Positions 31,018 to 54,600 of a stretch of 64,000 nt of DNA are shown in pieces (within the stretch, counting starts at the first letter, position 1; each line of letters begins with the position of its first letter). Source of the DNA: a virus; IMG/VR virus record IMGVR_UViG_3300032313_000500, positions 1-64,000 of that record; one strand, given 5' to 3'. The notes under the pieces are model-generated. The model was not told the DNA's origin, made no database searches, and saw nothing but the letters and a program-made list of their open reading frames with translations. The position numbers and the translations under genes were made by a program.

Positions 31018-34000
31018 ATGAGTCAGCAAGACATTCAATTTAAAGCCATTCCTGGCCAGTTCAACATTGACGAGGCTCAGGGCGTAGTTGAGTGTTTCGT
31101 CGCAGGTATCGGCAACAAAGATTCGGTTGGCGACGTTTTGATTACTGGGGCATTTACTAAAAGCCTTACCCGCCGCAAGCCTCGTGTTGTTTGGGGTCAC
31201 AACTGGAACGACCCAATCGGCAAAGTCCTTGAAATATATGAAGTTGCACCTGGGGATAGAAGACTCCCATCCAAGATGTTAAATGCTGGAATTGGCGGCC
31301 TTTACGCAAGAGTTCAGTTCAACCTCAACTCAGAAAAAGGTCGTGAGGCATTCGCCAACGTCGCTTTCTTCGGTCAAGAGCAAGAATGGTCAATCGGTTA
31401 TAAAACGCTTGATTCAATCTTTGACCCGAACATCCAAGCAAACATTCTAAAAGAAGTAGAACTTTACGAAGTATCGCCAGTACTACATGGTGCTAACCAA
31501 CTAACTGGAACAATTTCTGTAAAGTCTGACGAAACAGCCGAGAAGCACATGCCGGGAATGATGATGCCCCACCACGAAGGAATGGGTGCTGGTCCTAAAA
31601 TTGTTGTCGTAAGACAAAGCAACGATGACGACGACGATAAGCCGATTTTCTCAGAAGGTCTCGCTCAGGCACTTGGTGACAACGAAAAAGAAAGATTGAC
31701 ACGCGAACTGCAAGCCAGAAGCGGTTCATCAATTCAATTGGTTTCCGCTACAGAGAGTACGGCAAAGTTTAGAAGAATGACTTCTGATGGTCGTTCCGTA
31801 ATGTACAGAATTGGATACCACACTCCAGACAATTACGTTACCTTCATGTTTGGAAAGCCGGAACTGGCGGAAAGCCAACAACCGGGCGGTTCACGCACTG
31901 TTGTTCCGTCACAGATGCCTTCAATGCCAATGCAGGTTAAGCCACGAGTAACAACTGACTCAACAAACTATGTTGTTAGCCCTGAATACGTAATGCCAAA
32001 AGGCGAAGATTACGAAAAGTCAGCCTTTGACGAAGAACTAGAAAATCTTGCTCAAATTCTTGATGAGACATTTGATGTAAAAGTTGGAAGAACTCTTAGT
32101 TCTCGCAACATGTCAAAACTAAAAACTGTCCTAGAGACACTTCAGGATATTGTTTCATCAGCAGAAAAAGATGTTGAGTCAAAAAGCGATTACATCATTC
32201 CTGTCAAACTGGAAAATGCGTTTGAGACCAAGCAGTTACTTGACCCAATTTTTGATTACCACAGAGTTGAATCTCATGTGACAGAAGACGGAATAGTCAT
32301 CACAACAGGGGTAACTCAAGAATTTATAGAGGCCATTGGCGTGGCCGAAAAAGCCTTGGGGCGAACGCTGAGCGGTGGCCTGGGAAAATTAGGCCGCGCC
32401 GGTAGGGGCGCGGTAAACTTTGACCCAAAAGCATGGGACGGTGACGGAGACGGAATCGTACAAGAAGGAACACCGTACTCACGTCCAGCAATACCTGGAG
32501 TAAATGACCGCGCATCTGGCGGAAGAGTTGATGCCACTGCTGCAACCCGTGCATGGCAAAATCAACGCAGAGCCGGAATGGCATCACGTACTGGCCGTAT
32601 GGATGCAGATGACAACTTTGACGAATACGACGAAGCAATGGGTCCACCAATGCGTCGTGCAGGTAGAGGAATGGCTGAAGACCCAACTGGCGACGCTGCT
32701 TCAGAAAACCTTGATAGGGACAGAAACGCTGGCGCTGTAAGAAGAGGATTGAGTTCAAGCACACCAAAGCCTCGTAAAAAGTCAACCGATTACAAAAAAG
32801 ACAAAAACTACACAGACCTTGACGATGACGACAAGAAAATTGTAGACGTAATTCAAGAAGCAATAGAAAACGGCGAGATAACGGGTGAAAGTTATTGGTC
32901 GGATTGGGTGAGTAATACTCTTGGTGACTGGAGTCTGCAAGAACAGTACGAGGCTATTTATGGCAGGTCTGCTACTAGTGAAGACTTTCAAGAATCTGCC
33001 GACCAAAGCGGCAGTCGGTACAGAGATGGTGAAGGAAGATATGATGACGACATTGAGGAAGAATTCTATTCCGAATCAATAGCGGATGCATCCCCTCGTG
33101 AGAAACTAATAGGGCTAGTTGGAGAATACATGCCTGAGGGTTCAAAGTATGGCGACAAAAAGCACATTGCTGCACTTCGTCAATCTTTTTCTTCTGGAAG
33201 AAGCGGACTCAGTTCAAGCACTTCAGGTTCTAGAGGAAAACCGGAGCCGTTAAAGCGCGAGGGCGAATTTCACGGTGGGAATATCTACGACGAATTCAAT
33301 GGTCAATATGTTGAAGGTGAAGTAGTTGCTTTATCCGACCTTTATGGCGACGACAGACCAGGGTATGGAATAGTTGGTAGATACGACAGCGACGGAAGTG
33401 GCACTGTTGATTATTTCTACGGCGGAACGGACGACGAAGAATTTGAAACCATTGAGGATGCTATAGCGTTCTTGGAAAATGTTGAAAACGAAGCAGAAAA
33501 CGACAGATTCTATAACGAACCTGAATTTAGAAGCGTAGACCGTAAGCGTTCTGCTGGTAGACCTGGCGAAAGACCACTTGCAGGGTTTTCATCAAGCACC
33601 GCAGAGGTTGTGTCAAAAGATGACTTGCCAAAAGAACTTGTAAACGACGTAGCAAATGCTGCAGTTCGCGCCGTGGGCCGTAGTGGTGACGAGACACGAC
33701 TTATTGATGGGGCTAAAGAAGTATTGGCAAACCTTACTAGCGAAAAATTAAAAGACAGCGTCGGTAAGTCTATATCCAATGCAAGAAAACGATTAGCAGA
33801 AATGCTTTCTGACGAAAAAGTCATTGAAGAATTTCAGTCAAGAAAAGCAATTGAAGATTTTATGGACGAAGTGGGCTATGCCGTTCAAGAGATGCTTGAT
33901 TTACATGTTGGTTCTGTTAAAAAAAATGGAACCTCTGTTGAAAAAGAAGAAATTGAAGAAATTGTAGATAATGCAAAATCTAAATTTGATAATGATTTTA

Positions 34001-37000
34001 ATGAATTAGTTAAAGCGTCTAAAGAGTTTTGGAACAAGAGACGTAAGCCCGGCAGATTAGATGGCACTCCAGAAGAAGCAAAAAAAGAAGCAGCAATAGA
34101 TAGAAAAAATTTGATGGAAACCCTCAGGGAGGGTGGAGAGCCAGAAGACCTTGAATCAACGCTTGGTTCAATTTTTAAAATGTTTGATAATGATTCTGAA
34201 AAAATAATTTCCGGAACAATTTCTGTTGAAGATTTAAACTATCTAACAGAAAAAGCACTTGACCAAATTATTGAAAACGACCCATCAATTGACCCAGAAG
34301 AATTAGTAAACGAATTTGCTGAGGCTCTCCGTGAGGGAGCATCCAAGGATGGTGCAAACCCACTGATTGTTGCTTTAGCAAAAGAATTTGGCGATGAAAA
34401 GATTACTGGTGGCGACCTAATTGACTACCTGAATGACACTCGTCAAAATTCTGTTTACAGACCCGACAGAGGCAAGATTGAAAAAGAAAAACTTCGTGGC
34501 TTTGCTTCCAGGGTAGGCAATAACGACCCTGCCAACACTGGAGACGGAGAACGTGGTCTTGGTTCTTCATCCGATAAGCGTGAAATGGACATGACGCTTG
34601 CTGAATATGCAGAACTAGATAAAGTTCTTAAGAAATACATGGATGACAGCCAAGTAGACGGCATCGGTGCTGACGAAGACATGCAAGTAATTCAGGATAT
34701 TCTTGACAAACTTGATGAGAGTTCAGCCGCAAACGACTCAATTCCTCTTACGGACAAAGAAATTGACGACTACATGGACACTCTCACAAGAATGAGAGAC
34801 AACGGTCCAGTTGAAGATTTAGCAGATAAAGAATCAATAGACAAACTGATTGACTCCTTAAAGAAAACAAAAGAATCAACAGACGGAACCTACGAATCAG
34901 ATGCTCTTCAGCAGGCCGGAACAAGGCTCACTCCTCCTCCTGGCGGTCGTGGAAGAACCACAAAAGGCACTCGCCCATTCAAGAGTTCCAACGGAACAAT
35001 AAATCCACACAAAAAACTTGATTTTGAATTAGAAGATTCTGAAATTGGCGAACTTCGTGATGAACTTGATGGTTTTATGAAGATGACCAACAACCCTGGT
35101 CCACTTAGGGCTGTTGCTGAGAAACTAGAAAAAGCCACAAATGGCAAGTTTTCACTTGAAAAAGAAGAATACGAAGAAGTTGTAAAAGAAATAGAAAAAC
35201 TACGGACAGACAAAAAGATAGTTACATCAGACGTAATCGGACTTCTTGAGCAAGCAGCAGAATCCAAAAAAGGAAAGTACTCAAGCATTGAAGTCAATGG
35301 CGGACGAGGTTTCTCATCATCTACTGGTGGTGGCAAGAACAATGGAGCACCATCCGACATTCCCGAGACAATGCAAAAGCAATTACTCATGTGGGCTAGA
35401 CAGCAAAGAGGTCTTAGGCTCGCTCAAGAATCAGTTGAGAAGTTTGACAGGGACAAAGGAACTCTTCCAGCATCACATTGGAGAAGACTGCGCACCTTGT
35501 ATGAGAACATGGGACCAGGCTCAGCCAGTGGCGCTGCTCGCAGTGGTGGACGCAGAGGCATCTTCGGCCGTGGAAAAGATACTTCTCCGACTACGCAGGT
35601 TGGTCGTGGACCTTCCGCTGAAAGCAAACCACTACCCCAAGGCCTGCTTGATAACACAATGTCAAAAAATCCAATTGTCACAGATGGATTTACGGACATG
35701 AGGTCTGGAAGCATGGGTGGCTCACAGGGCGGAGGCGTATTCAAAGACCCAAAGACTGGTCAGGAATATTACATCAAGCCAGCAAAGACGCAGACTCATG
35801 CAGAAAACGAATCGCTAATGTCTCGTCTCTATGAAAGAATAGGTATTCCTGTTGCGAAAGTAAAAGTAGGAACCTACAAAGGTCGTCCAAAAATTGTTAG
35901 CATAATGATTCCAGGAGCAGAAAAAGTCAACCACGAATCCGAGATGAAAAAACCGGCGTGGAAGAAGGCGGTTCAAGATACTTTTGTGGCTAATGCGTGG
36001 CTTGCAAACTGGGACGCTGTTTCAAACGGCGGAAATACCATTAGGGGCGGAGACGGCAATGCGTACGTCGTTGATGTTGGCGGTGCTGGTCTTTTCCGAG
36101 CAAGAGGAGAAGCAAAGGGCTCGGCGTTTGGTCCTATCGTCGGGGAAATGGAATCCTTGAGAGACCCCAAACAGGACGGCGCTCAACGCGGTGTTGCATA
36201 CTGGGGAGATATTCCACCAGCAGAAATTGCTCGTCAGGTAAAAGTAATTGGAGCAATATCCGATTCTGAAATCAAACAAATGGTTGATGCGTTAATTTCT
36301 GACAAGGGTGAAGCAAAGAAACTTTCTGACACTCTTATTGCACGACGTGACTATCTCGTTCAAAACTGGAGCACTGGCAAAAACAGTGGCTCCGGCAGAA
36401 GAGGTCGTACTGGCTTTTCATCTAGAACAGACCCTAGCGACCTTTCCGACTACAGACCACCCCGGCGCACGCCTGGCGGAGTACCGGCAATGAGACCTGC
36501 CGATTTTGAAGTGCGAGCCGATAGCGAAGGCGTCACTGGTGTTGGCAAGGGTGGGGCAATGGGAACAAAGCCTGACAAAAAATTCTCTGGTGACTCTTTT
36601 GACCAAGTTAAGCCAGACAAGTGGGATGAACTCACAATTGACGAAAAATGGGAATGGATGCTTGGCGAAGGAAACCCTGAAAAGGGCGGAACCATGTCTC
36701 CTGCTGCGTACGAGGGCGCTATGAAGAAACTTGGCGACGAAGAAGCCAGAGAAGAAGCAAAGCGGATGTCTCCAGAAGAACGGAGAAAAGCCCGTACCGA
36801 GTCAAGAGAGAGCCAAAGAGCGCAACTTTCCGACAACGAAAAAGAAAGAATCTCTGCTGAAAGAGCAAAGCGTCAAGCAGATGCAGAAAGCCAATCCAAG
36901 CGAGTCAAGGAAGAGGCAACTGCAGAAAAAGCACAAGCCAAGAGACAGGCGCTTCTTGATGGTTTCAACGAATGGATTGATGACTCAGTCCGTCAACTTT

Positions 37001-37890
37001 CAGAAATGGAATATGACGGAACCGACATCAACCCTGATGCCGACGATATCTGGGACACCGTTTCCACAATCCTTGGCGTCAATGACATTACACCAAAATC
37101 CCTAAACGAAGCAATTGAGGAACTTTCATCATACGTTGACGTTAATTCACCTGGGGAAAATGCTTATGAAAAGAAGAGCATTGCCCGTGCCAACGCATTA
37201 TTGAAGAAACTTTCAAAGATGAAATCAGAGTATTCGGAAGACAAATGGTTCAACGGCAGAGAAGGCAGAAGGTCTGGATTTGACTCCAGAACTGGTGGCA
37301 GGCCACGTCCTGGAACCCCAGAAATGCCTCAATCAAACGCCAAGCGCGAGGGAGACATAAAAAGACTTTCCACACTGATTGAGCAGGTTGTCGCAGAACT
37401 TGAAGCAAAACGTCAAAACCCTTCACCCAAAAAGGGTCGCATGGGCTTCTCTTCGTCTACCGGAAAGACCATGATTACCGACGAAGCGACATTCTTTAAG
37501 GACATTGAGAATTCTCTTGCAAAAGAAATTAGAGCCGCACAGAAGGCCAAGAACACCAAGGCAATTACAGGGCTAACTAAACTTCAAGAAATAATCAAGA
37601 GAAACGAAGCATCCAAGACTGGCGACAGAAGAACAAATGTCGGAAGCATATACATGACGATGGATGAAGTTGACCTAATTCTTGACGGTCTTCAGTTTGC
37701 TCTTGACCAACAGGTGGACGCCGGTGGAGATAAGAGAATTGGCTGGTACTCAAAGTTGATTGAAAAGATTGCAGCAGCAGCCATGTCTACATTTATTGAT
37801 AAAAGCACAACAGAGATTGGTTCAACCAGAAGAACAGTCACCAACAAAGATGGCGTAAAGAAAAAAATCAATATTGTCCCAGAAGCATAA
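31018..37890 (+). CDS. Prohead protease (HK97/S78 type) fused to ~2100 aa of cargo including a HipA/PI3-PI4-kinase-like domain
   Basis: N-terminal ~170 aa: GNKDSVGD, VWGHNW (His), EWSIGY (Ser), LYEVSPV..AN. At ~35700-36380: GGSQGGG, YYIK, AENE, ANWD..GN, VDVGG. Confidence 0.85.
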   Translation: MSQQDIQFKAIPGQFNIDEAQGVVECFVAGIGNKDSVGDVLITGAFTKSLTRRKPRVVWGHNWNDPIGKVLEIYEVAPGDRRLPSKMLNAGIGGLYARVQFNLNSEKGREAFANVAFFGQEQEWSIGYKTLDSIFDPNIQANILKEVELYEVSPVLHGANQLTGTISVKSDETAEKHMPGMMMPHHEGMGAGPKIVVVRQSNDDDDDKPIFSEGLAQALGDNEKERLTRELQARSGSSIQLVSATESTAKFRRMTSDGRSVMYRIGYHTPDNYVTFMFGKPELAESQQPGGSRTVVPSQMPSMPMQVKPRVTTDSTNYVVSPEYVMPKGEDYEKSAFDEELENLAQILDETFDVKVGRTLSSRNMSKLKTVLETLQDIVSSAEKDVESKSDYIIPVKLENAFETKQLLDPIFDYHRVESHVTEDGIVITTGVTQEFIEAIGVAEKALGRTLSGGLGKLGRAGRGAVNFDPKAWDGDGDGIVQEGTPYSRPAIPGVNDRASGGRVDATAATRAWQNQRRAGMASRTGRMDADDNFDEYDEAMGPPMRRAGRGMAEDPTGDAASENLDRDRNAGAVRRGLSSSTPKPRKKSTDYKKDKNYTDLDDDDKKIVDVIQEAIENGEITGESYWSDWVSNTLGDWSLQEQYEAIYGRSATSEDFQESADQSGSRYRDGEGRYDDDIEEEFYSESIADASPREKLIGLVGEYMPEGSKYGDKKHIAALRQSFSSGRSGLSSSTSGSRGKPEPLKREGEFHGGNIYDEFNGQYVEGEVVALSDLYGDDRPGYGIVGRYDSDGSGTVDYFYGGTDDEEFETIEDAIAFLENVENEAENDRFYNEPEFRSVDRKRSAGRPGERPLAGFSSSTAEVVSKDDLPKELVNDVANAAVRAVGRSGDETRLIDGAKEVLANLTSEKLKDSVGKSISNARKRLAEMLSDEKVIEEFQSRKAIEDFMDEVGYAVQEMLDLHVGSVKKNGTSVEKEEIEEIVDNAKSKFDNDFNELVKASKEFWNKRRKPGRLDGTPEEAKKEAAIDRKNLMETLREGGEPEDLESTLGSIFKMFDNDSEKIISGTISVEDLNYLTEKALDQIIENDPSIDPEELVNEFAEALREGASKDGANPLIVALAKEFGDEKITGGDLIDYLNDTRQNSVYRPDRGKIEKEKLRGFASRVGNNDPANTGDGERGLGSSSDKREMDMTLAEYAELDKVLKKYMDDSQVDGIGADEDMQVIQDILDKLDESSAANDSIPLTDKEIDDYMDTLTRMRDNGPVEDLADKESIDKLIDSLKKTKESTDGTYESDALQQAGTRLTPPPGGRGRTTKGTRPFKSSNGTINPHKKLDFELEDSEIGELRDELDGFMKMTNNPGPLRAVAEKLEKATNGKFSLEKEEYEEVVKEIEKLRTDKKIVTSDVIGLLEQAAESKKGKYSSIEVNGGRGFSSSTGGGKNNGAPSDIPETMQKQLLMWARQQRGLRLAQESVEKFDRDKGTLPASHWRRLRTLYENMGPGSASGAARSGGRRGIFGRGKDTSPTTQVGRGPSAESKPLPQGLLDNTMSKNPIVTDGFTDMRSGSMGGSQGGGVFKDPKTGQEYYIKPAKTQTHAENESLMSRLYERIGIPVAKVKVGTYKGRPKIVSIMIPGAEKVNHESEMKKPAWKKAVQDTFVANAWLANWDAVSNGGNTIRGGDGNAYVVDVGGAGLFRARGEAKGSAFGPIVGEMESLRDPKQDGAQRGVAYWGDIPPAEIARQVKVIGAISDSEIKQMVDALISDKGEAKKLSDTLIARRDYLVQNWSTGKNSGSGRRGRTGFSSRTDPSDLSDYRPPRRTPGGVPAMRPADFEVRADSEGVTGVGKGGAMGTKPDKKFSGDSFDQVKPDKWDELTIDEKWEWMLGEGNPEKGGTMSPAAYEGAMKKLGDEEAREEAKRMSPEERRKARTESRESQRAQLSDNEKERISAERAKRQADAESQSKRVKEEATAEKAQAKRQALLDGFNEWIDDSVRQLSEMEYDGTDINPDADDIWDTVSTILGVNDITPKSLNEAIEELSSYVDVNSPGENAYEKKSIARANALLKKLSKMKSEYSEDKWFNGREGRRSGFDSRTGGRPRPGTPEMPQSNAKREGDIKRLSTLIEQVVAELEAKRQNPSPKKGRMGFSSSTGKTMITDEATFFKDIENSLAKEIRAAQKAKNTKAITGLTKLQEIIKRNEASKTGDRRTNVGSIYMTMDEVDLILDGLQFALDQQVDAGGDKRIGWYSKLIEKIAAAAMSTFIDKSTTEIGSTRRTVTNKDGVKKKINIVPEA

Positions 37891-37999
37891 ATAGTGTGCG
37901 TTCTCGCCCAGAGGGGCGTGCTACGTTATACTTTTATAAACTATTCATAATGTGATATTGACACTCGTGTCTTTACTCGCTAAAAAACAGGAGTTACCA

Positions 38000-39376
38000 A
38001 TGAGCGAAAAAGTTGAAGTCAGTGTTGATGCGGACGGCAATGTTCTTAAGTGCGCTAAGGGCGCAAATGCTGCCGATTGCGGGTTTACACCAGGGGCAAA
38101 AGTTTGTGGCAAGTGCGGAGCAATGCCTATTCAGATGAAGATGGTCCCAGTCACTGATGATGACTATGAAGTCAAGGGTGGCGATAACTGGGACGACAGC
38201 GCCATGTTTAACGCTATGAAAAAGCGTCAAAAGGGCATGGGTATGGGTATGCCTGACGAAGAAGACGAAGAAGAAATGCCAATGAAGGGTATGGGCTACG
38301 AAGAAGAAGACGACGAAGAAGACGACTTAGTTCCCATGAAAACTTCAAAGAAGAAGATGTCTCTTGAAATTGAAGAAGACGACGAAGAAGAAGACGACGA
38401 AGACGAGTTGTCCATGGACGGAGAAGTTGACCTAGAGGCAGCAAGAAAGAAGCGCCTTGCCAGCATGGGTGAAAAAGTTGCAGAACTCGGCAGAAATGCA
38501 TACATGTGTGCTGTTGAAAGAAAAGTTTACCCAGGTGGTTCAAGCGTTTGTGACGACTGCCCTGGTGGGTGTTTGCCAGAGCGCGGAATGCCAGGACTTC
38601 TTTCAGTTGAAGGAATTGCTGAACAAATGTTTCAGGGCAAGGTTCTTGACTCTGGATACTCTTCAGATGCAGACATGTTCGTAGTTGACATTCAATCAAA
38701 GAGCGGCCGTGCCGTTGAAGTATTTATTGACGGTACAACTGCAGAAGTTCTTGGTTTCCACAAACTTGACGACAACGCTTTTGAGCAAAAGTCAGCACTT
38801 GATTCAATGATGGTTATTGACTTCCATGAAGCAGCAGAAATTGCTGTTAAGTCTATTCAGGGTGACGTTGTTGCAGTTGAGCCAGACATTTTTGAAGGCT
38901 TTGATGCATACGCAGTTGAGATTGAAGGTCTTGATGGAAAGTCATACGATGTGTTTGTCTCTCTTGACGGTGAAGTTCTTGGATACGATAAGTACGAGCC
39001 AGAAGAAGCAGAAGCAATTGAAGCAGAAGCCGCAGAAATTGCATTAAAGCGTGCATTCAATGAAGACATGCGTACACAAATGGCGCAAGAAGGAAAAGCA
39101 CTTCCAGACGGCTCTTTCCCAATCTCCAACGTAGAAGACCTAAAGAACGCAATCAGCGCTTATGGTCGTGCAGGCGATAAAGAGGCAGCAAAAAAGCACA
39201 TCATGAAGCAAGCAAAGGCTCTCGGTCAGGAAAAACTAATTCCTGCTAACTGGGTAACTGGTGGAGCAAAAGTTGTTGAAGAGAAGTCCGGAGAAGTTGA
39301 CTCTGACCTTATGGCATCACTCGTTGAGTTTGAACTCCTTGAGGCCGAGGTTAAAGACGCAGACCCAACAATCTAG
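38000..39376 (+). CDS. Head-associated protein: two Cys clusters, acidic tract, two PepSY-like repeats and a C-terminal ALPDGSFPI domain
   Basis: AGGAG RBS before ATG 38000. CAKG..CGKCG and CDDCPGGC clusters. EAAEIAVKSIQGDVVAVE..YAVEI..YDVFVSLDGEVL is the PepSY pattern. Confidence 0.65.
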   Translation: MSEKVEVSVDADGNVLKCAKGANAADCGFTPGAKVCGKCGAMPIQMKMVPVTDDDYEVKGGDNWDDSAMFNAMKKRQKGMGMGMPDEEDEEEMPMKGMGYEEEDDEEDDLVPMKTSKKKMSLEIEEDDEEEDDEDELSMDGEVDLEAARKKRLASMGEKVAELGRNAYMCAVERKVYPGGSSVCDDCPGGCLPERGMPGLLSVEGIAEQMFQGKVLDSGYSSDADMFVVDIQSKSGRAVEVFIDGTTAEVLGFHKLDDNAFEQKSALDSMMVIDFHEAAEIAVKSIQGDVVAVEPDIFEGFDAYAVEIEGLDGKSYDVFVSLDGEVLGYDKYEPEEAEAIEAEAAEIALKRAFNEDMRTQMAQEGKALPDGSFPISNVEDLKNAISAYGRAGDKEAAKKHIMKQAKALGQEKLIPANWVTGGAKVVEEKSGEVDSDLMASLVEFELLEAEVKDADPTI

Positions 39377-39392: not shown

Positions 39393-42300
39393 ATGACGGG
39401 GGTGAACATTAATAAAATTCGCCATTACGCGCCTGGATTCAATAATAGAACAACGCGTCTTGATGCGGATATGTCTGCATTGCTTTTCAAGGCGGGAACA
39501 AGAGTTATTTCATCATCGGAAAGACTAATAGCCGACGTCTCTATTAAGGCAGCAATGGGTGCAGGTGCTCCTGCCGATGATAAAAAAAGAGGCCTTCAAA
39601 GCGCTGGTAAATCAAAGTACATAAACATCAACGGTCTTGTTTATGACCCAGCAGCAAAAAAACAAGAAGGTCAATTCTTTAAACCGTGGATTACGGAAAG
39701 AGAAAGAATTAATGCCATGCGCTCAAGCGACCCAGTTCCCAACTGGGGATGGGTTGATGCGCATCCAGAGCATCAAAATAAACTTGAAGCGCCAAGGAAT
39801 TCAAAAGGCAAAGTAACAAGATATCCAGTAAATCCTAAAACTGGTGAGCCAATGAAGAACCAGGGGTTTGACCAAGAGTTCAAATCTCTTGGACCAACGC
39901 TTGGTGAAAGAAATCCTGGCGGAAAACTGCTTGCACGAACAGCAAAGGCCTTTGGTTTAGTAGTTGATGCTCTTGGAAAATTCAGATGCCCTCCCGGCAC
40001 TCCAGCAGCAAACAGGTTTACAAACGAAAGAGGCGAAGGCTGTTTTGATATTTCAGTAGCCCAAGTACGTAATTTGGTTGGTTCTTTAGCCGACTCAATG
40101 CAGGGACCGCAGAACAGGTCACAAATAGTGTCATCTCTTGCATCTGCGGGATTAAGTATTGCTGAAATTAGAAAGTCCTACAAAGAAAATGGTATTGCCG
40201 GACTAGCAAGCCTCGCACGGCGTGTAGGCATTGATTACGTCGGTGAAAAATGGAACGACATGTCATATGTTTCACAAATACCAGTAAGACTAAGAGAAAT
40301 TTCTGGCTTGACAATGGGCGCTCAGTCAAGAATGGAAAGAATTGTTCAGGAAAAGGCTGCAACAATTGATTTTCTTGCAGAATATTACGGCATAACGGAA
40401 ACTGATGAATATAAAAAAATTGGTGAAATAGTCAAAGCGATGTCTGCCGACCCGGACTCGCCTTTAGCACCAAATCAATTTGAACTTTTGTTTAGAGGTG
40501 GCACTCCAGAAAGTCATGAAGACTGGGCAATTGATGCGCTAATTGAAACACACATTGAGGCAATTAACCAAAAACTTGGACTTGGAGGAACTCCTGATGT
40601 AATTAGGAGAGACCCAGTAATGATGGCAAGAGTTGCTGCAGATGCAAAAGAAGAGTATCTGCGAGCAAAGGCCGCTGGCGAAGTAACGCCAATTACTCAA
40701 TTCATTGATGCTGGTTTGAGAAGAGAAAAAGATTTTAGACTCGGAGCGTTTGAGGATATGGTAATCGCCGCACATGAGCGACCTCATTCTTTCACCATGC
40801 CGAATGGAAGTAAAAGAACATACGTAGCAGATGTTGGTGCCGGATATCAATACGATAAAAATGGAGAGGCTTGGCCTGACACTATTTTAATCAACTCCGG
40901 ACCTGCTCTTCTTGGATTTAGAGATACTCCACCTGCTGGATACATGGACCTATACGAAGCAACAGGCGGAGATATTGACGACCAGTGGAGGGCAGTTGCT
41001 TCAGCAATGGATGCAGACGAGCGCCTCAGAGCATATGCAACGCTATGGGGTACCGACTTGGCGGCAACTGAAGGTCGTGGATGGAGAGATTTTGGAGCAC
41101 AAACCTCTGCTCATGAAAGAGCCCACTGGGGTCAAATGGATGCAATTTTCCAGTATCACGCAGATAACGGAACCGGAAGAAATATAGAAGACTTAAACAA
41201 CGATGAACTGATGGATTTAACTAAAGAATTCATGACAAAAGCATCACCAGAAATATTGAGTGACGTTTTTGGTATTGATATTGATGATTTAATTGATAAG
41301 CGTTTTGACGCTCTTGCTGGTGCTTATAGCCAAGTGAAGCAACAAGAGGCGCTTGGTGAATTGACGGGAGGAGGAACTTCTGAAGAATTTAACTATGCCA
41401 GAACTCTTGCGTTAATGGAGACGCTTGCGGAATTAAAGGCAAATAAAGCAGTCGGCCTAATAGGCGACGACCCGGAGTTGGATGCAATTCTTGAAAAAAT
41501 GGACCCACTACCACCTTTGACTGGTGGCTCAATATCCCCATCGGGTGGAATTGTTCCATCAAGACCCGATGGTTCTCCTGCTCCTAGGTTCGTGCCGTCT
41601 GGCCGCGTTAGACCAACACTCCCTGGTTCGGCACCAGCGCTGCCAACCAATGCTGGAAGGGTGGTTACAACAACTCCAGGAAGAAGTGGCGGAAGAGGCC
41701 GACGAGGACCGGTTGACCCGTTTGAAAAGGAAAGATACGGAAAAGTCCCAACGATGATTAAAGAGGGGCGCTTTACCCTTGAAGACATTGACGAGTTCCT
41801 GTATGGAGAAGACGGCAAAGGTGGACTCAAGCGAATGCTTGAAAGTGTTGCAAACATGCGCACTAAAAAGAACGGCTACACCGACCCAGCATTGGTTAAA
41901 AGAAAACGTCTACTTAATGAACTAGTTGACACAATGGGTATTTCTTTTCCCGAACTTGAAGCACTAGCGCTTAAAGCAAAAAGAGGAGAGTCTTTAACTC
42001 CAGAAGAAAAGTCAAAACTTGTTGACGCTATTTCACATTTAAGAAACGGTGCAAATGAGTTTAAGGCAAAATCTATTGAAGCAAGAAAGAAATTTGAAGA
42101 CTATCGGTCTGTTGATGTATCCAGGGCAACTGGTGACGGTTCCGAATACGACGAAAAAGATACGAACGTATTAAATCTTGAACAAATACAAGACGAAATT
42201 GAAATGTATGAAGCACTGTTCAATAGGGTTGGGCGCGGAATAGCGCCAGCAGTGCATGACATTCTTACAATGACAGAGAATGGACCATACCCTCACCGCC

Positions 42301-46077: not shown

Positions 46078-48067
46078 TAGAGAAATAAATTTCGTTAAAA
46101 GAAGAGTTGCCCTACTTTCCGTAAAGACGGTACGTAAGGTAAACCCCGTAATTACCATGCGCCTAAACGGCCAGCAAAACGTAATAGATTACAAGGCCTT
46201 AGCAAAACGTTCTGGACTAACACGAAAGTACAGCGTGAAGGTTGGAATACTTGGCACGCACTCAACAATCGGCCAGGCTGCTCAATCTGCAATTTCTGCT
46301 GCAACTCCAGGAAACCTGAGCCCAATAAGAAGCCCGATTCGTTCTGGCTTATGGGGTGCCTTAACTCCTGGAAAGCCAAGAATTCCAGGTGGAACTGGTG
46401 GGGCAAATCGTGCCAGTCGTTGTCCAGAGGGATATCAGTATGGCGGTCGCTTTACTGACTCTCGTTTTTCTACATGTGGGGCAAAACTCTTTGACATACC
46501 TTCCGCTATTGGTTTAGCAATTGGCGCACTGAGAAGGATAGCCCGTGGCGCTAGAGCGGTTTCTGGAGACTCAACTCCAATCACTGGCGAAACTCCACCA
46601 GAGTCAATAGTTCAATCAAGACGTCCACAGATTCCAAGAGTCGGAAATCCCAACCCTGCAGCACGCGCGGCTGCGGCAAAAAACATCGTCTCTCAAATTG
46701 GGCAGACAGACGCGGCAGTCGTAAGAATGGTCAGAAAAGACGGTTTCGCATTGGAGCCAGTAGTCTCAGCGCAAGTACTCAGAGCAATCCCCGACAACAG
46801 GGACATGGAAGGCGCTGACTACATATTGTCAGTTCAGGACCTTCCACAACTCGGTGGCCAAGAACTCGGACTTTTATCAAATACCGGCGTTACTAAACTC
46901 ACCTATGTTTTGCCAGGTGGCTCAACCCTCTCGCTTGAAAAGAAGAGGCAACTCACTGTTGGTGAAAGAAGAAAACTTGGGCGCACCGTTAATGCTGCAT
47001 CAAAAATTGACATATCAAACGACCCCACTGCTCGCCTAAAAGAAGTCGTTGCTCAAACTGGGGATGGAATAGGTTATTCGGAAAACTTTTTAAACATCAA
47101 GAACCCAAATGAGGTGGTTTCTAAAGGTGGAAAGTCGGTTCCGAGATGGGCTGACGAATTGTTCGGCAAGGGAAGAAAAGCAAAGCCTGCAGCCAATGCA
47201 GAAAGAGCAACAGATTCAAGTAGTGCTGTGGGTAAAAACATCACAAGTGTTGACGCTGCAGTTGACCAGATAATGTCCGGAAGACCACTTTCTGAAATTG
47301 ACCCAATGATTTTGCAACAGGCTCTTACAAAGGCAAACGTATTTAAGAGACAAAAATTGGACCGAAGAAGAGAAATGCTTGAAACGCCAAATGGCAACAA
47401 GTACATGCTCTATTCCTCGTCTGGCAAATATGAGCACCTTGGTCAAAAACTTGCAAGCGATATCCAGCAGCACCTTGGTCTTGAGTCACCTGACGTTTTC
47501 TTTGTTGGCGAGGGAGATAAGAGAAAGTACATAGTGGAGGACCCTTCTTCTCTAATTAGGGGATTCCAGGTTGACCGTAGGCGTAAATTCTCCGACTACA
47601 AACCGGAAGATGTAGCAAAAATGCTTGTTTCCGACTGGCTTACGGACCAGAGAGAAAGAGACCCAGGCTCAATTGTTCCTGTTTCAAACGGAACTGACAC
47701 AAAGCCGGTTGTTACCAACAACTTCACTTCTGGACTTACTGACCTTGACCAAGTGTCAATTGTTGAGCGTCAAAAACTAACATTATCTCAATTCATGGAC
47801 GCAAATAGGGCTGAGACTTACTCGCAATATTTCCAAAATTTACAGCAACAACAGAGATTTGCCTTCAGAAGAGAGATTGACGCTCTACTATTAAGAGCAA
47901 GACAATTTAACTTTACACAATTTAAAAATCGCCTTTACAACGATGGTCGCTTAACCGACGCAGAAAAAGCACACCTGAACATCGTTGGGCGCATTCTGGA
48001 AATAAGAATTCAAAACTATGCAGGTAGTAGGGAAATTTTAATGGAAATCCTCGGAGTCAAAAAATGA
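46046..48067 (+). CDS. Head-cargo protein with RCPEG module and degenerate HipA/PI3K-like C-terminal domain
   Basis: RCPEGYQYGGRFTDSRFSTCG; C-terminal HLGQKLASDIQQHLGLESPDV..LVSDWLTDQRERDPGSIV. The true start may be the TTG near 46070. Confidence 0.55.
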   Translation: MILNRTTTLSNREINFVKRRVALLSVKTVRKVNPVITMRLNGQQNVIDYKALAKRSGLTRKYSVKVGILGTHSTIGQAAQSAISAATPGNLSPIRSPIRSGLWGALTPGKPRIPGGTGGANRASRCPEGYQYGGRFTDSRFSTCGAKLFDIPSAIGLAIGALRRIARGARAVSGDSTPITGETPPESIVQSRRPQIPRVGNPNPAARAAAAKNIVSQIGQTDAAVVRMVRKDGFALEPVVSAQVLRAIPDNRDMEGADYILSVQDLPQLGGQELGLLSNTGVTKLTYVLPGGSTLSLEKKRQLTVGERRKLGRTVNAASKIDISNDPTARLKEVVAQTGDGIGYSENFLNIKNPNEVVSKGGKSVPRWADELFGKGRKAKPAANAERATDSSSAVGKNITSVDAAVDQIMSGRPLSEIDPMILQQALTKANVFKRQKLDRRREMLETPNGNKYMLYSSSGKYEHLGQKLASDIQQHLGLESPDVFFVGEGDKRKYIVEDPSSLIRGFQVDRRRKFSDYKPEDVAKMLVSDWLTDQRERDPGSIVPVSNGTDTKPVVTNNFTSGLTDLDQVSIVERQKLTLSQFMDANRAETYSQYFQNLQQQQRFAFRREIDALLLRARQFNFTQFKNRLYNDGRLTDAEKAHLNIVGRILEIRIQNYAGSREILMEILGVKK

Positions 48068-51000
48068 AAAAAGTATCTACCCTATTTGATGCACTGCGTA
48101 ATGAAAAATTTGCTATTGCTATTCAAGATGATTATGGAGTCAAATACTATGGCTCCGAAGGCCAGGGAAAAGAATGGTCCGACTGGGCCAACTCTCTTAG
48201 CACCAAAACTATTGACGCAAACAATATTCCAGCAGGAATCATTCAGGGGCCCTACAAAAACATTAGCGAGCATTCCTTAAAGTCATTGCTGACTGCTTTT
48301 GGAAACAACATTAGCGAAATTGGCAACTCCTATACAGACTCCAAGTCATACTCTTACAAAAGTTCTGTAAAGATGGACAACGGTGCCCGTGTTCCAGCAG
48401 TAATGGATACACCAATTGGTCACTTTACCAAGTCCCAGTATTCAAGCGCTGTGAATTACAAGGGTCTTGCTATTCGCACCCAAATCAAAGAGGGAAGTTT
48501 TCTTTTTGAAGCAAGAGCAAACAATTACGCATTCAACTTTGACAACTGGATGTACAACTCAACCCCGTCAAAAGCCGAAATAAAGTCACTTCGTCACAGA
48601 ATTGACACAAACGTAGGTCGTTCTTCCGAAAGACGTCTGGGCATGAAATTTAAAGCCGCTCTTGTTGAAAGAGATGGACGCCACAGAGTTGGTTACGCGC
48701 AAACACTGGAAACCAAATCACTTGAAGACTCTCTTGAGTTGAAAGGAATTGGTCAAAGAATAGGTGGAGGAGCACGCATCGGCAGAAGAGCGGCTCGCAG
48801 TATGGCCATGTTTGACCCTAAAGCATGGGACGGCGATGGCGATGGCGTAGTGCAGGAAGGTACACCCTTTGAAAGACCTGCAATTCCCGGCATCAACGAC
48901 AGGGCAACTGGCGGTGCTGTTGACGCAGATGCTGCGAAGAAGGCATGGAAAGAATTTCAAAAGAATCCAGGCAGTTCAACGCCTTCTAGAGAGTTGAGTC
49001 CTGCACGCAGAGCCATGCGCGAAGGAAGCCGCTCAGTAGGAAGACAAGTTCTCACTAACCGTAAGCCAGCGGCAGCGGGTCGTAAATTACCTGACTCAAA
49101 ACCAATCAAGAGAAGCGGTCTTGCATCAAGATTGCCTGGCGACAAAAACGAAGCAGGAGTCAACCCACTAGTAGCAAAAGAAGTAGTTCGCAAAATAGAA
49201 GATGTTCTCTATAAACGAGACACATTAGATTCATTCAGTGCTTTCATTGATGGACTTGGTCCAGACGGTGGTCAGGAATTAAGTGCTGAACAAGTTTTTG
49301 ACATAAAAGAAGCAATCCAGTTGTACGACAATGAAGAATACGACATGGACGACCTTTACAGCAGTGTTTCAGCAGCCGTCACCAGAAAGAAGCCCGACGC
49401 TAAACCAAGTCAATCCGGAATGCGTTCACGTGTTGGTAAAGCACAAATGGACAGACAAGTTAATGGTCTCGCATCACGAAGTGGTCGTTCTAAGAAAAAA
49501 TCAAAACTGAAAGCAGTACCAGGACTTGACAAGGTTGACGAACGAGATGGTTCCCTATGGGCGTCTTTGACACCAGAACAGCAAGAAGTTGTAAAGAAAA
49601 ATACTCAAACAGCATATGAAAGACTTCAGACATCCATCAAAAAAGACAAGTATCTCAGCACGTGGTGGGATGAATTTTTACGTCTTCCTCGCAAAAAGGG
49701 AGCAACAGACGCTGACGGTAATGAGTGGTCTGAGCAATCAAGAATTGCTGGAGAGGCATTCACTTCTTTTGAAGTAGCAATAAACAGGTCAATTGACGGC
49801 GCAAATTCAGAAATACAAGCCGACGAGAGAGCGCTTGCAGCAATGAGACCTACAGGGTCTGATGCTGAAATTAAAAAAGCAGAAAACAGAATTGCAAATA
49901 AGAAGAAACAGGTTCAAAGAATTCAAAAAATTCTAGACGACCTTAAAACGTACGACCAAATGGACAAAGCCGATGACTGGTCGCTTCTTGAACACCTTCA
50001 CCCAGAACAAAGAAAGAAATCTTTCGGTACTGGATTGCAAAAAGATGAAATAAATCTGATTGTTAGCCCTTTTGCTGATGGAAAACTTCCAAAGGGAATG
50101 AAAGTTGGAGAACCATCAACAATTTTTGAAGAAATTGGTGGAGTTAAAAGAGCAAAGCCTCGTATTATCGGAGAAAAAGGTGATGCAAAACTTGCAGACT
50201 TTGCAGACAGAATTCTTCGCCCCAACCCAGTAAGGGCGGAAAGAAGAAGACTACGAAAGGCCGGAAAAGGTAAGACGTTCACAGAAGAATCGCCACGCGA
50301 AAAAATCTCAAAAGTTAAAAGAAGAATTTCTAAAGCAAAACGTCAAGTACAAAGCAAGATTCGTGGAAAGCGCAATCCAGAGAATATTGAAAGCGCTTTG
50401 GAAAAAGTCAGGAAACGTAACACTCCACTTATCGGCAGAGACAAAGACGACAATCCGGTTATCTCTCGCGAAACAATTGAGGGTTTTGCAAAACTGCTAA
50501 GAGGATACAAGCCTTCGGAAAAAAGAACCAAAGATGGAGCGACCAAAGGTAAGAACGCCGACTCGTTCCTTGGACAAATCTGGGACTCACAAAACTTCTC
50601 TGCACTTCCTACAGCGATAACTGAAGAAGAGGCCAGGGAACTAATATCTTTAGGATGGACACCAATTCAACGTGGGCATGGAGGAACAACACCCTCCCAG
50701 GCAGCCTCATGGGCGGAAGATTATATTTACGACCCTAGAAGATTTATTACTGGAGAAGGTGGACAAGCAGTAGGCCCTGGAGAATACTGGGCCCACCCTG
50801 AGAGCACCGGATGGGACAGTTGGATTAGAGGTCAATCTTCAAACACTGCAACACTTGCTTTCTTGCCACCTAACTCAAAAGTCCTAACGGAAGCGCAAGC
50901 GTCAAAACTTCAACAGGACGGCAATAGTATTGCAAACGCAATCGGTGGATACATAACTGGTGCTGGTAGTGGTGGAAAAGCGGAAGAACTTGACCCACAA

Positions 51001-51360
51001 GACCTTGTTAGAGAAATCAAACAGCATCTTTCAAGCGTGTTACCAATGGATTCAGGTGTTTGGAATAGCGAAGTAGGAAAAGTATATTCTCAAATATTCA
51101 GCCTCATGGAGGCTGGAAACTCGGCGGAAGGCAAGCAACTCTATGCCGCTCTGCAGTTCATGTTAAAACAAAGAGACTCTCATAAAAACATTTACGCCAT
51201 GATTCTTGGATACGACGGTGTTGATTATGGAAAATCAGACGGAAGATTGCTGATGTTTAACCGCGGTGCGCTATCTGTTGTTGGAGAAGCAGTTGTTCCT
51301 CTTGATAAACTCAAAGCCATAGCAGCGGGCCAACCTTGGCCACCCAGAAAGGACGCATAA
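48064..51360 (+). CDS. Head-cargo protein with DGDGDG module and C-terminal PARP-like ART domain
   Basis: FDPKAWDGDGDGVVQEGTP; QNFSALPTAITEEE..IQRG..GEGGQAVGPGEYWA..LGYDGV resembles MuF-associated ART-like domains. Confidence 0.55.
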   Translation: MKKVSTLFDALRNEKFAIAIQDDYGVKYYGSEGQGKEWSDWANSLSTKTIDANNIPAGIIQGPYKNISEHSLKSLLTAFGNNISEIGNSYTDSKSYSYKSSVKMDNGARVPAVMDTPIGHFTKSQYSSAVNYKGLAIRTQIKEGSFLFEARANNYAFNFDNWMYNSTPSKAEIKSLRHRIDTNVGRSSERRLGMKFKAALVERDGRHRVGYAQTLETKSLEDSLELKGIGQRIGGGARIGRRAARSMAMFDPKAWDGDGDGVVQEGTPFERPAIPGINDRATGGAVDADAAKKAWKEFQKNPGSSTPSRELSPARRAMREGSRSVGRQVLTNRKPAAAGRKLPDSKPIKRSGLASRLPGDKNEAGVNPLVAKEVVRKIEDVLYKRDTLDSFSAFIDGLGPDGGQELSAEQVFDIKEAIQLYDNEEYDMDDLYSSVSAAVTRKKPDAKPSQSGMRSRVGKAQMDRQVNGLASRSGRSKKKSKLKAVPGLDKVDERDGSLWASLTPEQQEVVKKNTQTAYERLQTSIKKDKYLSTWWDEFLRLPRKKGATDADGNEWSEQSRIAGEAFTSFEVAINRSIDGANSEIQADERALAAMRPTGSDAEIKKAENRIANKKKQVQRIQKILDDLKTYDQMDKADDWSLLEHLHPEQRKKSFGTGLQKDEINLIVSPFADGKLPKGMKVGEPSTIFEEIGGVKRAKPRIIGEKGDAKLADFADRILRPNPVRAERRRLRKAGKGKTFTEESPREKISKVKRRISKAKRQVQSKIRGKRNPENIESALEKVRKRNTPLIGRDKDDNPVISRETIEGFAKLLRGYKPSEKRTKDGATKGKNADSFLGQIWDSQNFSALPTAITEEEARELISLGWTPIQRGHGGTTPSQAASWAEDYIYDPRRFITGEGGQAVGPGEYWAHPESTGWDSWIRGQSSNTATLAFLPPNSKVLTEAQASKLQQDGNSIANAIGGYITGAGSGGKAEELDPQDLVREIKQHLSSVLPMDSGVWNSEVGKVYSQIFSLMEAGNSAEGKQLYAALQFMLKQRDSHKNIYAMILGYDGVDYGKSDGRLLMFNRGALSVVGEAVVPLDKLKAIAAGQPWPPRKDA

Positions 51361-51689
51361 TGTCTGAAGACGAATTTGTAGAAAAACACCGTGAGTACTC
51401 CGTGTACGCAGACTGGCCTCCGTTTTCAATATCTAGCAAAAAAAGAAATGACTATCTTGAAGATGTTGTTAAAGAAGACAGACGAATAGTTTCAAAAATT
51501 AACGCCAAAGACGAAGATGCATTTGAAAGAATGTACTCAACCGTAGAGGTTAAGTGGTCTGACGACCTTGAAGAAGCCCGCCTCTACCAAAAGAGGTATG
51601 GCAAAGAAAAGATTGACGCATTTCTCGCTGCTTTAGAACTGGAAGGTCTTGAAGAAGACAGCGACGGCGTTCCATTTGGAATTTTTTAA
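51360..51689 (+). CDS. Small acidic hypothetical protein
   Basis: TAATG coupling at 51358-51362; MSEDEFVEKHREYSVYADWPPF. Confidence 0.65.
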   Translation: MSEDEFVEKHREYSVYADWPPFSISSKKRNDYLEDVVKEDRRIVSKINAKDEDAFERMYSTVEVKWSDDLEEARLYQKRYGKEKIDAFLAALELEGLEEDSDGVPFGIF

Positions 51690-51690
51690 T

Positions 51691-54600
51691 GTGGAAAGCG
51701 AACTCAGAAGTCAAATTGCTGCCGTAAGGCGAGCAGCGGATATTGGATGTTTTGGTGCGCACCAAATTTCAAACGGTGAATGGCTGCCCTGTTCTTCAAC
51801 AAAACAATTTCTGACAATTACTAACGGTTTTGATGTCAAGTCAAGAATTTCACTTGACGACATGGAGAACTGGTCTTCAATCAGAAAATCAAAAGGAAAA
51901 AAGCGAAAGAAGCGTTGGGAAAAACTTCGTGAGCGCAGAATACTTGGAATTGAATCTCTGGAAGGCGGCGGTCTTGTTTCTCCAAGAAACTCAACAAACA
52001 TGATTAATGGTGGCACAAATCCACCAATCACGCATGGTGCTTCAAGTCCTTCGGGTATGTCTACTAAGAGCATTCAGCCCGCATTCATGCCTAGAGACAA
52101 CGACCCTGACGTGTTTGTTGATATTGAATCAGCAAGAAAAAGAGCGCAGCAACTTGGCTGTATCGGTGTAAGCAGAAGAATGTCAAAAGGTGGAAAGGTT
52201 ATATGGATGCCATGTACAAATATCACCGACTACAACAATCTGACCGGAATGACTTCTCTTGGAAGAACAAATCTTCAAAAAAGAAATGAAAAAATAATTA
52301 GAACCGTAATAAAAGAAAATCTTAAAAAGAAAAAAACAACTATTCAAGAAGATATTTACGGCAAGGCTCTCGGTCCAAGAATTAGAGGAATAGCCCGAGC
52401 AGCAGTTTCAAGGTTTGACGCAAATGCTTTTGACGGAGACGAAGACGGCTTAATCCAAGACGGAACCACGTTTGAGAGACCAAGCATTCCAACTCCATCC
52501 ATACCAAAACCCGCAGACAGAGAAGCCACACCAAAAACTGTAGACAGAGAAGTTTCAGCATCAGAAGTTTCTGCAGTACGCAAATTCATGAGCGCCATGA
52601 CTTCTTCGCAAATGGATTCTTTCAGAGGTGAACCAATTGAAGCGTACGACGGAGTTCCTGGGTCAAGGCGTGGAATGGCATCCAGTGGTCCTGGATTCAT
52701 TATCGGTCGCGGTCCAAAACCAGTAAGCGGAAGAAAGACACCAAAGCCTTTATCCATAGCGGAACTGAGAAACCCAGAAGCAAGTCCAACCAACCCATTT
52801 AGAAATCTCGGTGGAAGACTGATGGGCAAATTGATTAGGGGAATGGTCAAGCCTGAACATAGAAACAAACAAGATAGAACGACTTTCCTCATTGGTGGAA
52901 ATACTGGTTCGGGTAAAACAACCGTACTTGACGGACATTTAATACCAAAAGGCCTAGTCCCCTCACACGAGGAAGCCGCGCTCATTGACCCTGACTTCAT
53001 CAAGAAAGGTCTTGTTGGATACAACGACGGGGATGGTGCTGGTCGTGTTCATAGAGAGTCTCAAGCAGCAACTGACAAGACAATTAGGGATGCCGCTTCT
53101 GACCAAATGGACATGGTAATCACAGGTTCTGGTGCGTCAAGACAAATTCAACACATGCGTGAAGCGTCTGAGCGTGGAGAAAAGGTAGTCGGACACTGGG
53201 TGCACGTTCCACAACAGGAAGCATCTAGGAGAATTAAAAAAAGAATGGATGAAACCAATAGGTACATCCCAGACAACACAGCCCATATGGCTCAGAGTAT
53301 TCCTAAAGTTATTTCAACAGGATTTGAAGAAGACTTACTGGATGAGTTCTACCTATGGGACAACGACGTACCCGAAGGTAAAGAGCCAAAACTTATTGCA
53401 AAAAAAGTTCGTGGCAAAAAGTTTGAAATATACGACGCTAAAAAATTTGAAGAATTTGCCGGAAGTAAAAAGTGGGCAGACACCTGGGTTGCAACATCTG
53501 AAGGAAAAGATTCAGACAATGACAGCGCATCTGTACAGATGAGTAAAAATAGAAGCGGAAATCCTGCAAACAGAGGCGGGAGTGGACGTGTCACGCCTCC
53601 CAAAAACCCGCGAACCCCAATACCTAGCACAGGACAAGGCTCTCCCTTGGACCTAACTCCGTACTCACCGCCATCAAGAGAAAATTCTGTAAAAAAAACA
53701 TTAATAGGAAAAATTCAAAAAATTATACCGCGTGTTCAATTTGAGGGAGTACTTAGAATAGCATCGCGTATTCCAAAGGGAATGCCTCTTTATGAAGAAA
53801 CTGACGACAATCAAATTAAAATAAATTTAAAATCTTTGCAAATTAATCTTGACACTCCTCAGGATATTTTGAAAGCAGTTGATACCTACGCTCCACTCAA
53901 AGCAGACAACGAATCAATGGAGGATTTTGCAGCAAGAATTATTCAAACTATTCCGGCTATGAGGTGGGCGGTTGGGTCCAGTGGTCCAGGAGGAGCAAAA
54001 AGACTTGCAGACATATTAACTCAATCTGGATTCAGTAATAATTCTCAAGAAAAAGTAAGAGAAATACTAAAGAAAAATTTAGAAAATCCATCATTTGCTG
54101 AATTAGTAAAAATACACGGAATGCCATTGATTGTAAACGGTGACACATTATTTACAACAAACGAAAAACTAGCAGCAGGAGGGACGGATGCTTTTCATAC
54201 TGCAGGTTATGGGTTTATCCTCATGTCTGATTCTCTTCTACGGGAAGGAAAGTCGTATTCTCTTGGCTGGACCGAGGAAACCCCCCTTTACAATTATGTT
54301 GGAGAAACAATGCGTCACGAGTGGTTTCACTACTTAGATGGAATAATGAACGCAATGGACCCTGTTGCGAGAAACAATAGAATACAAAAGTACATGAAAA
54401 GTGTAAATGATTTTCTTTCAGACCCTCAGGCTCGTTTTGAAAAAGCGCTAGGAACTCCAGAAGAAATGATTAAAGAAGCAGAGTCAATAGCAGTAAGAAG
54501 TATTGCTTTTGCTCAAGGAAAATCAAAACGTGATGCCATAAGGTATTTAAGGAATAGGAAAGACAAAGATTATTTGGCTTTAATGGATTTAGCCATTGGA

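Follow-up and report, generated by a model that had tools for sequence, protein, structure and literature searches.

A short peptide module, here called type A, recurs in giant proteins encoded beside the head genes of an uncultured phage, in the first 64 kb (positions 1 to 64,000, hereafter the window) of the 118,470-bp IMG/VR virus record IMGVR_UViG_3300032313_000500. The module consists of a lysine site (K-site), an Arg/Gly-rich spacer, a DGDGDG core, and an ERP tail. Three of the five large proteins (P1 to P5) encoded between the portal and major capsid protein genes carry it, namely, P1, P4, and P5 (Table 1), while P2 and P3 carry a cysteine-pair motif, here called type B. Tentatively, and with a confidence somewhat short of even, we favor the reading that type A is a portable cut-and-tag junction of head-packaged multi-enzyme ("polyvalent") proteins in an uncultured lineage of HK97-type actinophages. 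Type A is well established as a sequence feature, and the peptide had not been described before; from its sequence and placement we infer cutting, calcium binding, and docking. An original prediction, made from the letters of the window, had proposed a shared entry module in all five proteins. All five of its motif sets are present, within 3 nucleotides of where they had been placed, and its interpretation is partly supported, as set out below.

An all-against-all BLASTP comparison of the large proteins found a single significant similarity among P1, P4, P5, and a further protein, P6, which begins at the lysine and ends with the ERP tail (expectation values [E] of 4e-6 to 2e-19). The leaders of these four proteins share no sequence in the same comparison, and P2 and P3 have no detectable similarity to them. 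The predicted placement of the module at the boundary between leader and cargo of otherwise unrelated proteins is thereby borne out. The copy in P6 was found by searching the whole record; it occupies amino acids (aa) 37 to 77 (genome positions 66710 to 66823) and follows a 36-residue leader. The first two copies, those of P1 and P4, had been called near-identical, which holds for the core (28 of 34 residues identical), whereas the whole module is only 63% identical over 70 aa. Of the 28 identical core residues, 18 are encoded by different codons; the two copies are old and under purifying selection on the protein, in agreement with what the prediction drew from their synonymous divergence. 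Twelve columns are invariant in an alignment of 24 diverged type A copies. The core follows the pattern D-G/A-D-x-D-G, two hydrophobic residues, Q, E/D, G, and T, and the tail after the DxDxDG loop reads GT-x-aromatic-E/Q-R-P.

The spacing of the core is that of DxDxDG calcium loops, and the type A profile cross-matches a protein made of seven Excalibur calcium-binding repeats, so that the likeness to a calcium loop noted in the prediction is upheld and calcium binding by the core may be suggested. The module shares with Excalibur (PF05901) the spacing D-x-D-x-D-G-hydrophobic-hydrophobic-x-E; however, the cysteine before the glutamate in the Excalibur signature DxDxDGxxCE is glutamine in the module, and the flanks are unrelated. 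Membership in this family was rejected, as the Pfam model has no match to the module at E ≤ 10. A canonical EF-hand was likewise rejected, with threonine instead of glutamate at position 12, no predicted helices, and no Pfam EF-hand match. Before the loop, most copies have F/Y-D-P, and the aspartate is invariant in the 24 aligned copies. This Asp-Pro would allow a calcium-triggered self-processing, in which the module cuts itself and perhaps links its newly formed end to a lysine in a second protein, on the model of the self-processing module of FrpC of Neisseria, which has about 170 residues. However, the proline is replaced in several copies, including that of P5 (by alanine), the more compact relatives described below have no Asp-Pro, and the core has only about 30 residues, which makes self-processing the least probable of the explanations considered.

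The K-site is a defined motif linked to the core. In 257 instances from 214 proteins, it consists of K, A/G/S, L/I, and G, often followed by R/Q-R-I/L-G-G, with hydrophobic residues at three and one positions before the lysine. Among the 204 internal modules (those at least 45 residues from the N-terminus), 137 (67%) have a K-site within 45 aa upstream, compared with 121 of 4,080 random windows (3%) in the same proteins, in keeping with the predicted assignment of the lysine site to the module. Between the lysine and the core lies a spacer of 10 to 33 residues containing 24% Gly, 20% Arg, and 16.5% Ala. The same motif occurs in major capsid proteins. Those of sister phages have Y-S-L/V-K and then S/G-L-G at aa 91, the end of the coiled-coil scaffold (delta) domain, and a more distant module-bearing phage has F-K and then T-V-G at the delta boundary. 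In HK97, the capsid protein gp5 is cut at K103/S104 (PMC10275583), and the mature chain begins with S-L-G. The linkage to the core, the motif at the capsid boundary, and the likeness to the HK97 cut together make the phage's S78 prohead protease the likeliest reader of the K-site, and this protease would be the one that cuts it. The presumed reader is the S78 domain within the first 176 residues of P1 (PF04586, E of 3e-11 at aa 23 to 169; phrog_80, E of 1e-27), which is 40 to 45% identical to the capsid maturation proteases of Gordonia phages.

These patterns make it very improbable that type A is a passive linker, that is, a flexible spacer copied by domain shuffling without a specific partner or cut. 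The module is predicted to be unstructured and lies between domains, as such a linker would. However, the invariant columns in diverged copies, the conservation of the protein despite synonymous divergence, and a fixed placement tied to the K-site are patterns that linkers do not keep. A second motif distinct from the K-site, usually R-x-G-F/L/M-S/A-S-S/R/T-T/S, occurs 24 times in P1, P2, P4, P5, and P6 (10 times each in P1 and P6 and once or twice in each of the others), and it is also found three times in the probable tape measure protein (10811 to 15487, minus strand). The capsid protein, portal, sheath, terminase, and P3 have no copy. Since the capsid protein does not contain this G-F/L-S/A-S linker, the K-type site is the one that capsid and cargo share. 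Two strings resembling K-sites were not counted, as both seem to be part of a folded or conserved segment: K-S/A-V/L-G-P-G-A-P at the portal N-terminus (28852 to 28950), which is kept in all relatives, and a conserved string in the acidic protein encoded at 37952 to 39376.

Type A is widespread in viral metagenomes. A profile built from the four copies matched 614 clusters at E ≤ 1e-3 and 138 clusters at E ≤ 1e-10 among 1.84 billion representatives (clusters at 50% identity), and nearly all of the matches come from viral metagenome contigs. In IMG/VR, 340 stretches encode a type A relative. Just three matches were found in 185,579 prokaryote species (one genome each), all of them in metagenome-assembled genomes, which indicates that the carriers are mostly lytic, uncultured phages. 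Pfam searches with type A and type B at E ≤ 10 gave no match, no NCBIfam family covers either module in searches with the five whole proteins, and a PDB profile search with type A at E ≤ 10 was empty. The only library match is phrog_7924, a family of unknown function that covers the core, and some sequenced phage therefore probably has the core. A tblastn search of 50,697 deposited phage genomes with two type A copies and the whole of P3 returned nothing, a result in which the low-complexity filter may hide the DGD core, and megablast of the cassette between the portal and capsid genes gave no match.

At 73 of 78 fetched module loci, the flank encodes a homologue of the portal, the protease, the capsid protein, or P3; the other 5 are P6-type giants with the module about 30 to 60 residues from the start. 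Three classes of positions were found: about aa 440 to 600, behind an S78 protease, with many matches carrying PF04586; about aa 220 to 260, behind leaders of the P4 or P5 type; and about aa 30, in proteins of 2,500 to 3,700 aa. In total, 53 modules begin within the first 45 residues, most of them without a lysine site and with nothing upstream to remove, and in some proteins a tag stands a few residues after the start and a second copy follows behind an internal lysine. Two tandem tags form the N-terminus of small proteins of 150 to 170 aa encoded directly after the capsid gene in siphovirus-like contigs (positions 8001 to 8510 in each of the viral contigs L092 and L093). In a similar small protein with two tags, the C-terminal end is a peptidoglycan-binding domain. 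A search of the ESM Atlas with a small two-tag protein returned only viral clusters without names, below 0.9.

Diverged matches contain a compact unit, in which a lysine and a small residue lie 4 to 7 residues before the DGD core, and which repeats at internal junctions. In a relative of 3,015 aa, five units follow a portal domain and a MuF domain, and the pieces include a GNAT domain; a second has four ART-PolyVal domains with one unit before each; and a third contains HipA-like and PI3/PI4-kinase-like domains. The repeats at internal junctions, together with the N-terminal and tandem tags, indicate that the unit is not only an entry element and appears to mark the N-terminus of each deliverable piece. 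The predicted term "entry" fits the boundary between leader and cargo and is too narrow for the relatives, in which the unit is also internal or, in some cases, N-terminal without a leader. The compact relatives have no basic spacer, which thus appears dispensable, leaving the lysine, the DGD loop, and the GT..ERP tail as the core of the unit by comparison of these sequences.

The composition of the spacer and the place of the tag would also fit an element that acts at exit or after entry, the basic stretch binding packaged DNA and the acidic loop binding divalent cations. The fragment would then exit together with the DNA or before it, or it would refold or become active only upon a change in calcium after ejection. 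Consistent with this, the spacer is rich in arginine and the loop is of the DxDxDG type, the tag is at the predicted mature N-terminus of every fragment, and the cargo includes enzyme types that would act in the host, such as a zeta-toxin-like kinase, kinase-like folds, ART-PolyVal, and helix-turn-helix/sigma-like domains. However, DNA binding cannot be the core function because the compact relatives are without the basic spacer, and we regard this explanation as distinctly unlikely.

Under the cut-and-tag reading, the phage's own S78 protease, which would be active only within the procapsid, would cut after the lysine of a site composed of hydrophobic-x-K followed by A/G/S, L/I, and G. A spacer of 4 to 33 residues rich in Gly, Arg, and Ala would link the K-site to a DxDxDG loop of the Excalibur/EF-hand kind, and this loop with its GT..ERP tail would stay at the N-terminus of the released piece. 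The retained tag may then serve for docking or retention, with the tethered protease or the shell as its reader inside the procapsid. Through this tag, free-standing cargo would be loaded and the K-site presented for cutting, and each released fragment would be held back in the head up to ejection, while the scaffold peptides leave. A role beyond cutting is suggested because some tags have nothing upstream, tandem tags occur near the capsid gene, and the tag is the one element shared by cargo whose leaders are unrelated.

An alternative is that the unit is a cleavage junction only, with the DGD loop as a recognition element on the P-prime side for the prohead protease. The loop would then neither address nor anchor the cargo, and loading would be provided by leaders or by fusion to protease or portal. 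The unit occurs at every internal junction of polyproteins that are already tied to portal-MuF or protease, the K-site is merely 4 to 7 residues from the DGD core in those relatives, and the K-site and the core are tightly linked, all of which fit such a junction. However, most of the 53 modules within the first 45 residues have no lysine site or anything to cut off, the small proteins have two tandem N-terminal tags, and the leaders of P1, P4, P5, and P6 contain nothing usable as a common address. Cleavage alone is unlikely, yet it is a serious rival, since cargo fused to protease or portal still carries the unit. A broader proposal than the cut-and-tag junction, which we consider rather unlikely, gives the DGD tag the role of a general, portable address for capsids of the HK97 type. 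The tag would dock, possibly via calcium, on the prohead protease or the shell, the protease would double as a cargo-loading receptor, and any protein with the tag of about 30 residues would be loaded, trimmed at the lysine, and retained.

Several observations weigh against the cut-and-tag reading. A separate address is superfluous for cargo already joined to the protease or the portal, yet such cargo carries the module, which favors a role in cleavage alone. About one-third of the internal modules have no strict K-site, and looser sites (K-A-N or K-A-S and then Arg-rich stretches) account for most of these. The capsid protein encoded in the window itself has a degenerate site, K91 followed by S-V-Y-G, and phmmer aligns the mature start of HK97 with residue 150 of this protein (T-L-G-R-G) and not with aa 92, so the real capsid cut could lie at residue 150. 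The cultured Gordonia phage DalanDe and the Actinomycetia phage DSL-LC01 do not have the module despite giant proteins in their head regions, and because their capsid and protease are similar to those of the phage studied here, the module is not required by this capsid type. Co-variation within genomes of the residue before the core, which would be a sign of a phage-specific receptor, gave an inconsistent trend. Finally, the 61-aa module alone was predicted by AlphaFold2 with a predicted local distance difference test (pLDDT) score of 58 and without secondary structure; such a lack of stable structure is in keeping with a short linear motif or with a loop that depends on metal.

Among known systems, the capsid targeting sequence of T4, with its processing by gp21, appears to be the closest working analogue. 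The T4 internal proteins (IPI-III and Alt) likewise have a short peptide near the N-terminus of unrelated head-packaged proteins, at or near a prohead-protease site, and their cargo is delivered with the DNA. However, the T4 sequence has about 10 residues, is at the extreme N-terminus, and is removed by gp21 and lost, whereas the conserved part of type A comes after the putative cut and would stay on the cargo, behind leaders of 35 to 470 residues. In addition, the T4 cut follows Glu (L/I-x-E) and is made by gp21, a protease of family S77, whereas the site here has Lys and the protease is of family S78 (HK97-type). Assignment to a system of the T4 type was rejected because tag position and fate, cut residue, and protease family all differ. 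Maturation of HK97 (gp4 protease and gp5) has the same protease family, the same capsid fold, and a Lys followed by a small residue, Leu, and Gly at the scaffold boundary. As in a substrate of this kind, the S78 protease here is encoded in the same head module, and the site motif is common to the cargo and the capsid scaffold boundary; however, HK97 is not known to package cargo proteins, and it lacks a DGD element. The cargo-loading peptide of encapsulins, a short hydrophobic/Gly motif of the type L-x-I-G-S-L at a protein terminus, binds to the inner face of an HK97-fold shell; the K-site region contains L/I-G-x-x-L/I-x-G, which is not the encapsulin pattern.

The Dar system of phage P1 (the phage, not protein P1) is reportedly another case in which a myovirus head packs very large multi-domain proteins (DarB, DdrB, and others), with N-terminal processing and packaging determinants. 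No sequence similarity to it was found, and its determinants are not known to be a motif common to the cargo. The large proteins fit the concept of polyvalent proteins, which are giant, combine several enzymes in one chain, lie next to portal and terminase genes, and occur as fusions with portal, MuF, or peptidases (Iyer et al. 2017, PMC5512222). Those proteins were predicted to be packaged and injected, and a metallopeptidase domain, rather than the prohead protease, was proposed to process them; the text describes no junction element, and the words "linker" and "calcium" are absent from it (PMC5512222). At least two unrelated effector-type domains in the context of packaging genes are found in P5 (DUF3721, zeta toxin, and HExxH) and in P1 (protease and a kinase-like region), and relatives contain ART-PolyVal, portal-MuF, GNAT, zeta-toxin-type, and kinase domains.

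The original prediction had treated the modules of all five proteins as one. Types A and B are each real; however, no homology was detected between them, and they have in common only their position and a K-site. Type B (RCPxG..RFT..C) has eight columns invariant across the P2 and P3 orthologues and contains the only two cysteines of P2 and of P3, 18 residues apart, and such a lone pair in nearly Cys-free proteins suggests a disulfide or a shared metal site. The K208 site of P2 is followed by S-L-G-P-T-L and a basic stretch, resembling the first half of type A. Both types are found in one relative, with type B close to the start and type A later in the chain. Orthologues of the P2 cargo with type A in place of type B, which would indicate interchangeability, were looked for, and none was found. 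With neither homology nor replacement in orthologous cargo, the equivalence of A and B rests on position only; type B is a separate Cys-pair motif, placed downstream of a K-site in the disordered N-terminal region of two conserved proteins, and it may have a similar task. DUF3721 (PF12518) was rejected as the identity of type B, as the type B stretches have no Pfam match at E ≤ 10; the leader of P5 does match this family.

For P3, K65 had been named as the lysine site. The family-invariant lysine is instead K50; K50 and A51 are invariant in 33 relatives, which makes K50-A51 a better candidate for a cut than K65. The P3 family has a constant length of about 670 aa. The first 200 residues, containing the lysine sites and type B, are predicted to be disordered, and aa 200 to 673 (46646 to 48067) are predicted to adopt an atypical protein-kinase fold, with Helicobacter CtkA, actin-fragmin kinase, CotH, and HipA/HipT as the best Foldseek matches. 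The folded part has no sequence family matches.

The features of the cassette are listed in Table 1. The major capsid protein matches the HK97 gp5 chains (E of 1e-50) and is 48% identical to capsid proteins of Brevibacterium and Gordonia phages, which identifies the phage as an actinophage. Two whiB-family genes, which are actinophage markers, lie beyond the window (genome positions 79794 to 80006 and 111658 to 111840, minus strand). A tail sheath is encoded in the window, indicating a myovirus. Lake-water and other freshwater metagenomes from many studies hold at least half of the sampled words of one cargo gene, and RNA runs hold small shares only of the same gene.

Table 1. Coordinates of the portal-to-capsid cassette and of the junction elements in the window
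Feature	Positions	Strand	Remarks
Portal protein gene	28852..30909	+	phrog_2662/phrog_12 portal, E 1e-68; upstream border of the cassette
P1, 2290 aa	31018..37890	+	Prohead protease, linker, type A junction, and about 1,800 aa of cargo
HK97-family (S78) prohead protease domain of P1	31018..31545	+	Peptidase_S78 at aa 23-169; phrog_80; TIGR01543
Type A junction of P1	32344..32514	+	K445 site, spacer, DGD core aa 474-479, ERP tail
P2, up to 1938 aa	39261..45077	+	Open reading frame
P2 junction	39876..40043	+	K208 site, basic stretch, type B Cys-pair motif (C243, C261)
P3, 673 aa	46046..48067	+	Disordered N-terminal 200 aa, then predicted atypical protein-kinase fold
P3 family-invariant lysine site	46190..46201	+	Y49-K50-A51-L52; K50 and A51 invariant in 33 relatives
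P3 stretch, K65 site to type B	46232..46480	+	Type B Cys-pair motif (C126, C144)
P4, 1098 aa	48064..51360	+	226-aa leader, type A junction, cargo without family match
Type A junction of P4	48736..48906	+	K227 site, spacer, DGD core aa 256-261
P5, 1083 aa	51649..54900	+	Leader, type A junction, zeta-toxin-like P-loop kinase, C-terminal HExxH
Type A junction of P5	52357..52482	+	K239 site, short spacer, DGDEDG core aa 262-267
Major capsid protein (HK97 fold)	55257..56615	+	phrog_10; N-terminal scaffold (delta) domain; downstream border of the cassette
Capsid protein K91/S92	55518..55538	+	Candidate maturation cut, end of the delta domain of about 91 aa

Within the cargo, P5 has a zeta-toxin-like P-loop kinase at aa 408 to 547 and a zincin-like H-E-W-F-H near its C-terminus, and its leader contains two DUF3721 copies (3.5e-12), each with a Cys pair (C34/C48 and C171/C189). 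The 3,212-aa P6 is encoded beyond the window and at a distance from the head genes (genome positions 66590 to 76228), and an H-E-W-G-H lies near its aa 275; a Pfam search of P6 gave no match. In architecture, P6 is reminiscent of giant proteins packaged in virions, for example the N4 virion RNA polymerase, but a polymerase domain was not detected. Cysteine is scarce in the giants, with none in the 1,098 aa of P4, one in the 2,290 aa of P1, and three in the 3,212 aa of P6, and the few cysteines of P2, P3, and P5 are all within paired motifs. The region of P1 at aa 1575 to 1784 (about 35740 to 36370), kinase-like by eye, is 33 to 38% identical to unannotated proteins encoded by DSL-LC01 and by a number of phages of Gordonia, Escherichia, Enterobacter, and Morganella. 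A further match is a single protein of an Aeromonas phage, which carries the annotation ADP-ribosyltransferase. Between P1 and P2, the acidic protein has 474 aa and a C-terminal segment that is kept in all relatives and recurs at the C-terminus of the 1,633-aa "capsid maturation protease" of DalanDe and in DSL-LC01; it is possibly a scaffold-like or DUF6321-type element. The P2 reading frame overlaps this preceding gene, and its true start is therefore probably the ATG at 39393.

How tailed phages choose the proteins that are packed in the head and delivered together with the DNA is poorly understood outside T4. Type A is one short peptide common to hundreds of giant enzyme-carrying proteins of abundant lake phages, and it is tied to the probable motif of the capsid protease. 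If it is a signal for both loading and cutting, it would explain how whole arsenals of injected enzymes are assembled and released, and it would provide a sequence rule that predicts virion-delivered effectors in metagenomes and a small tag for packing foreign proteins in HK97-type shells. If it is only a recognition element of the protease, it would still define the code by which S78 proteases of a large uncultured branch recognize their substrates. If the reading as a portable address is true, it would be the first such system outside the T4-like phages and a tool for filling capsids with chosen proteins.

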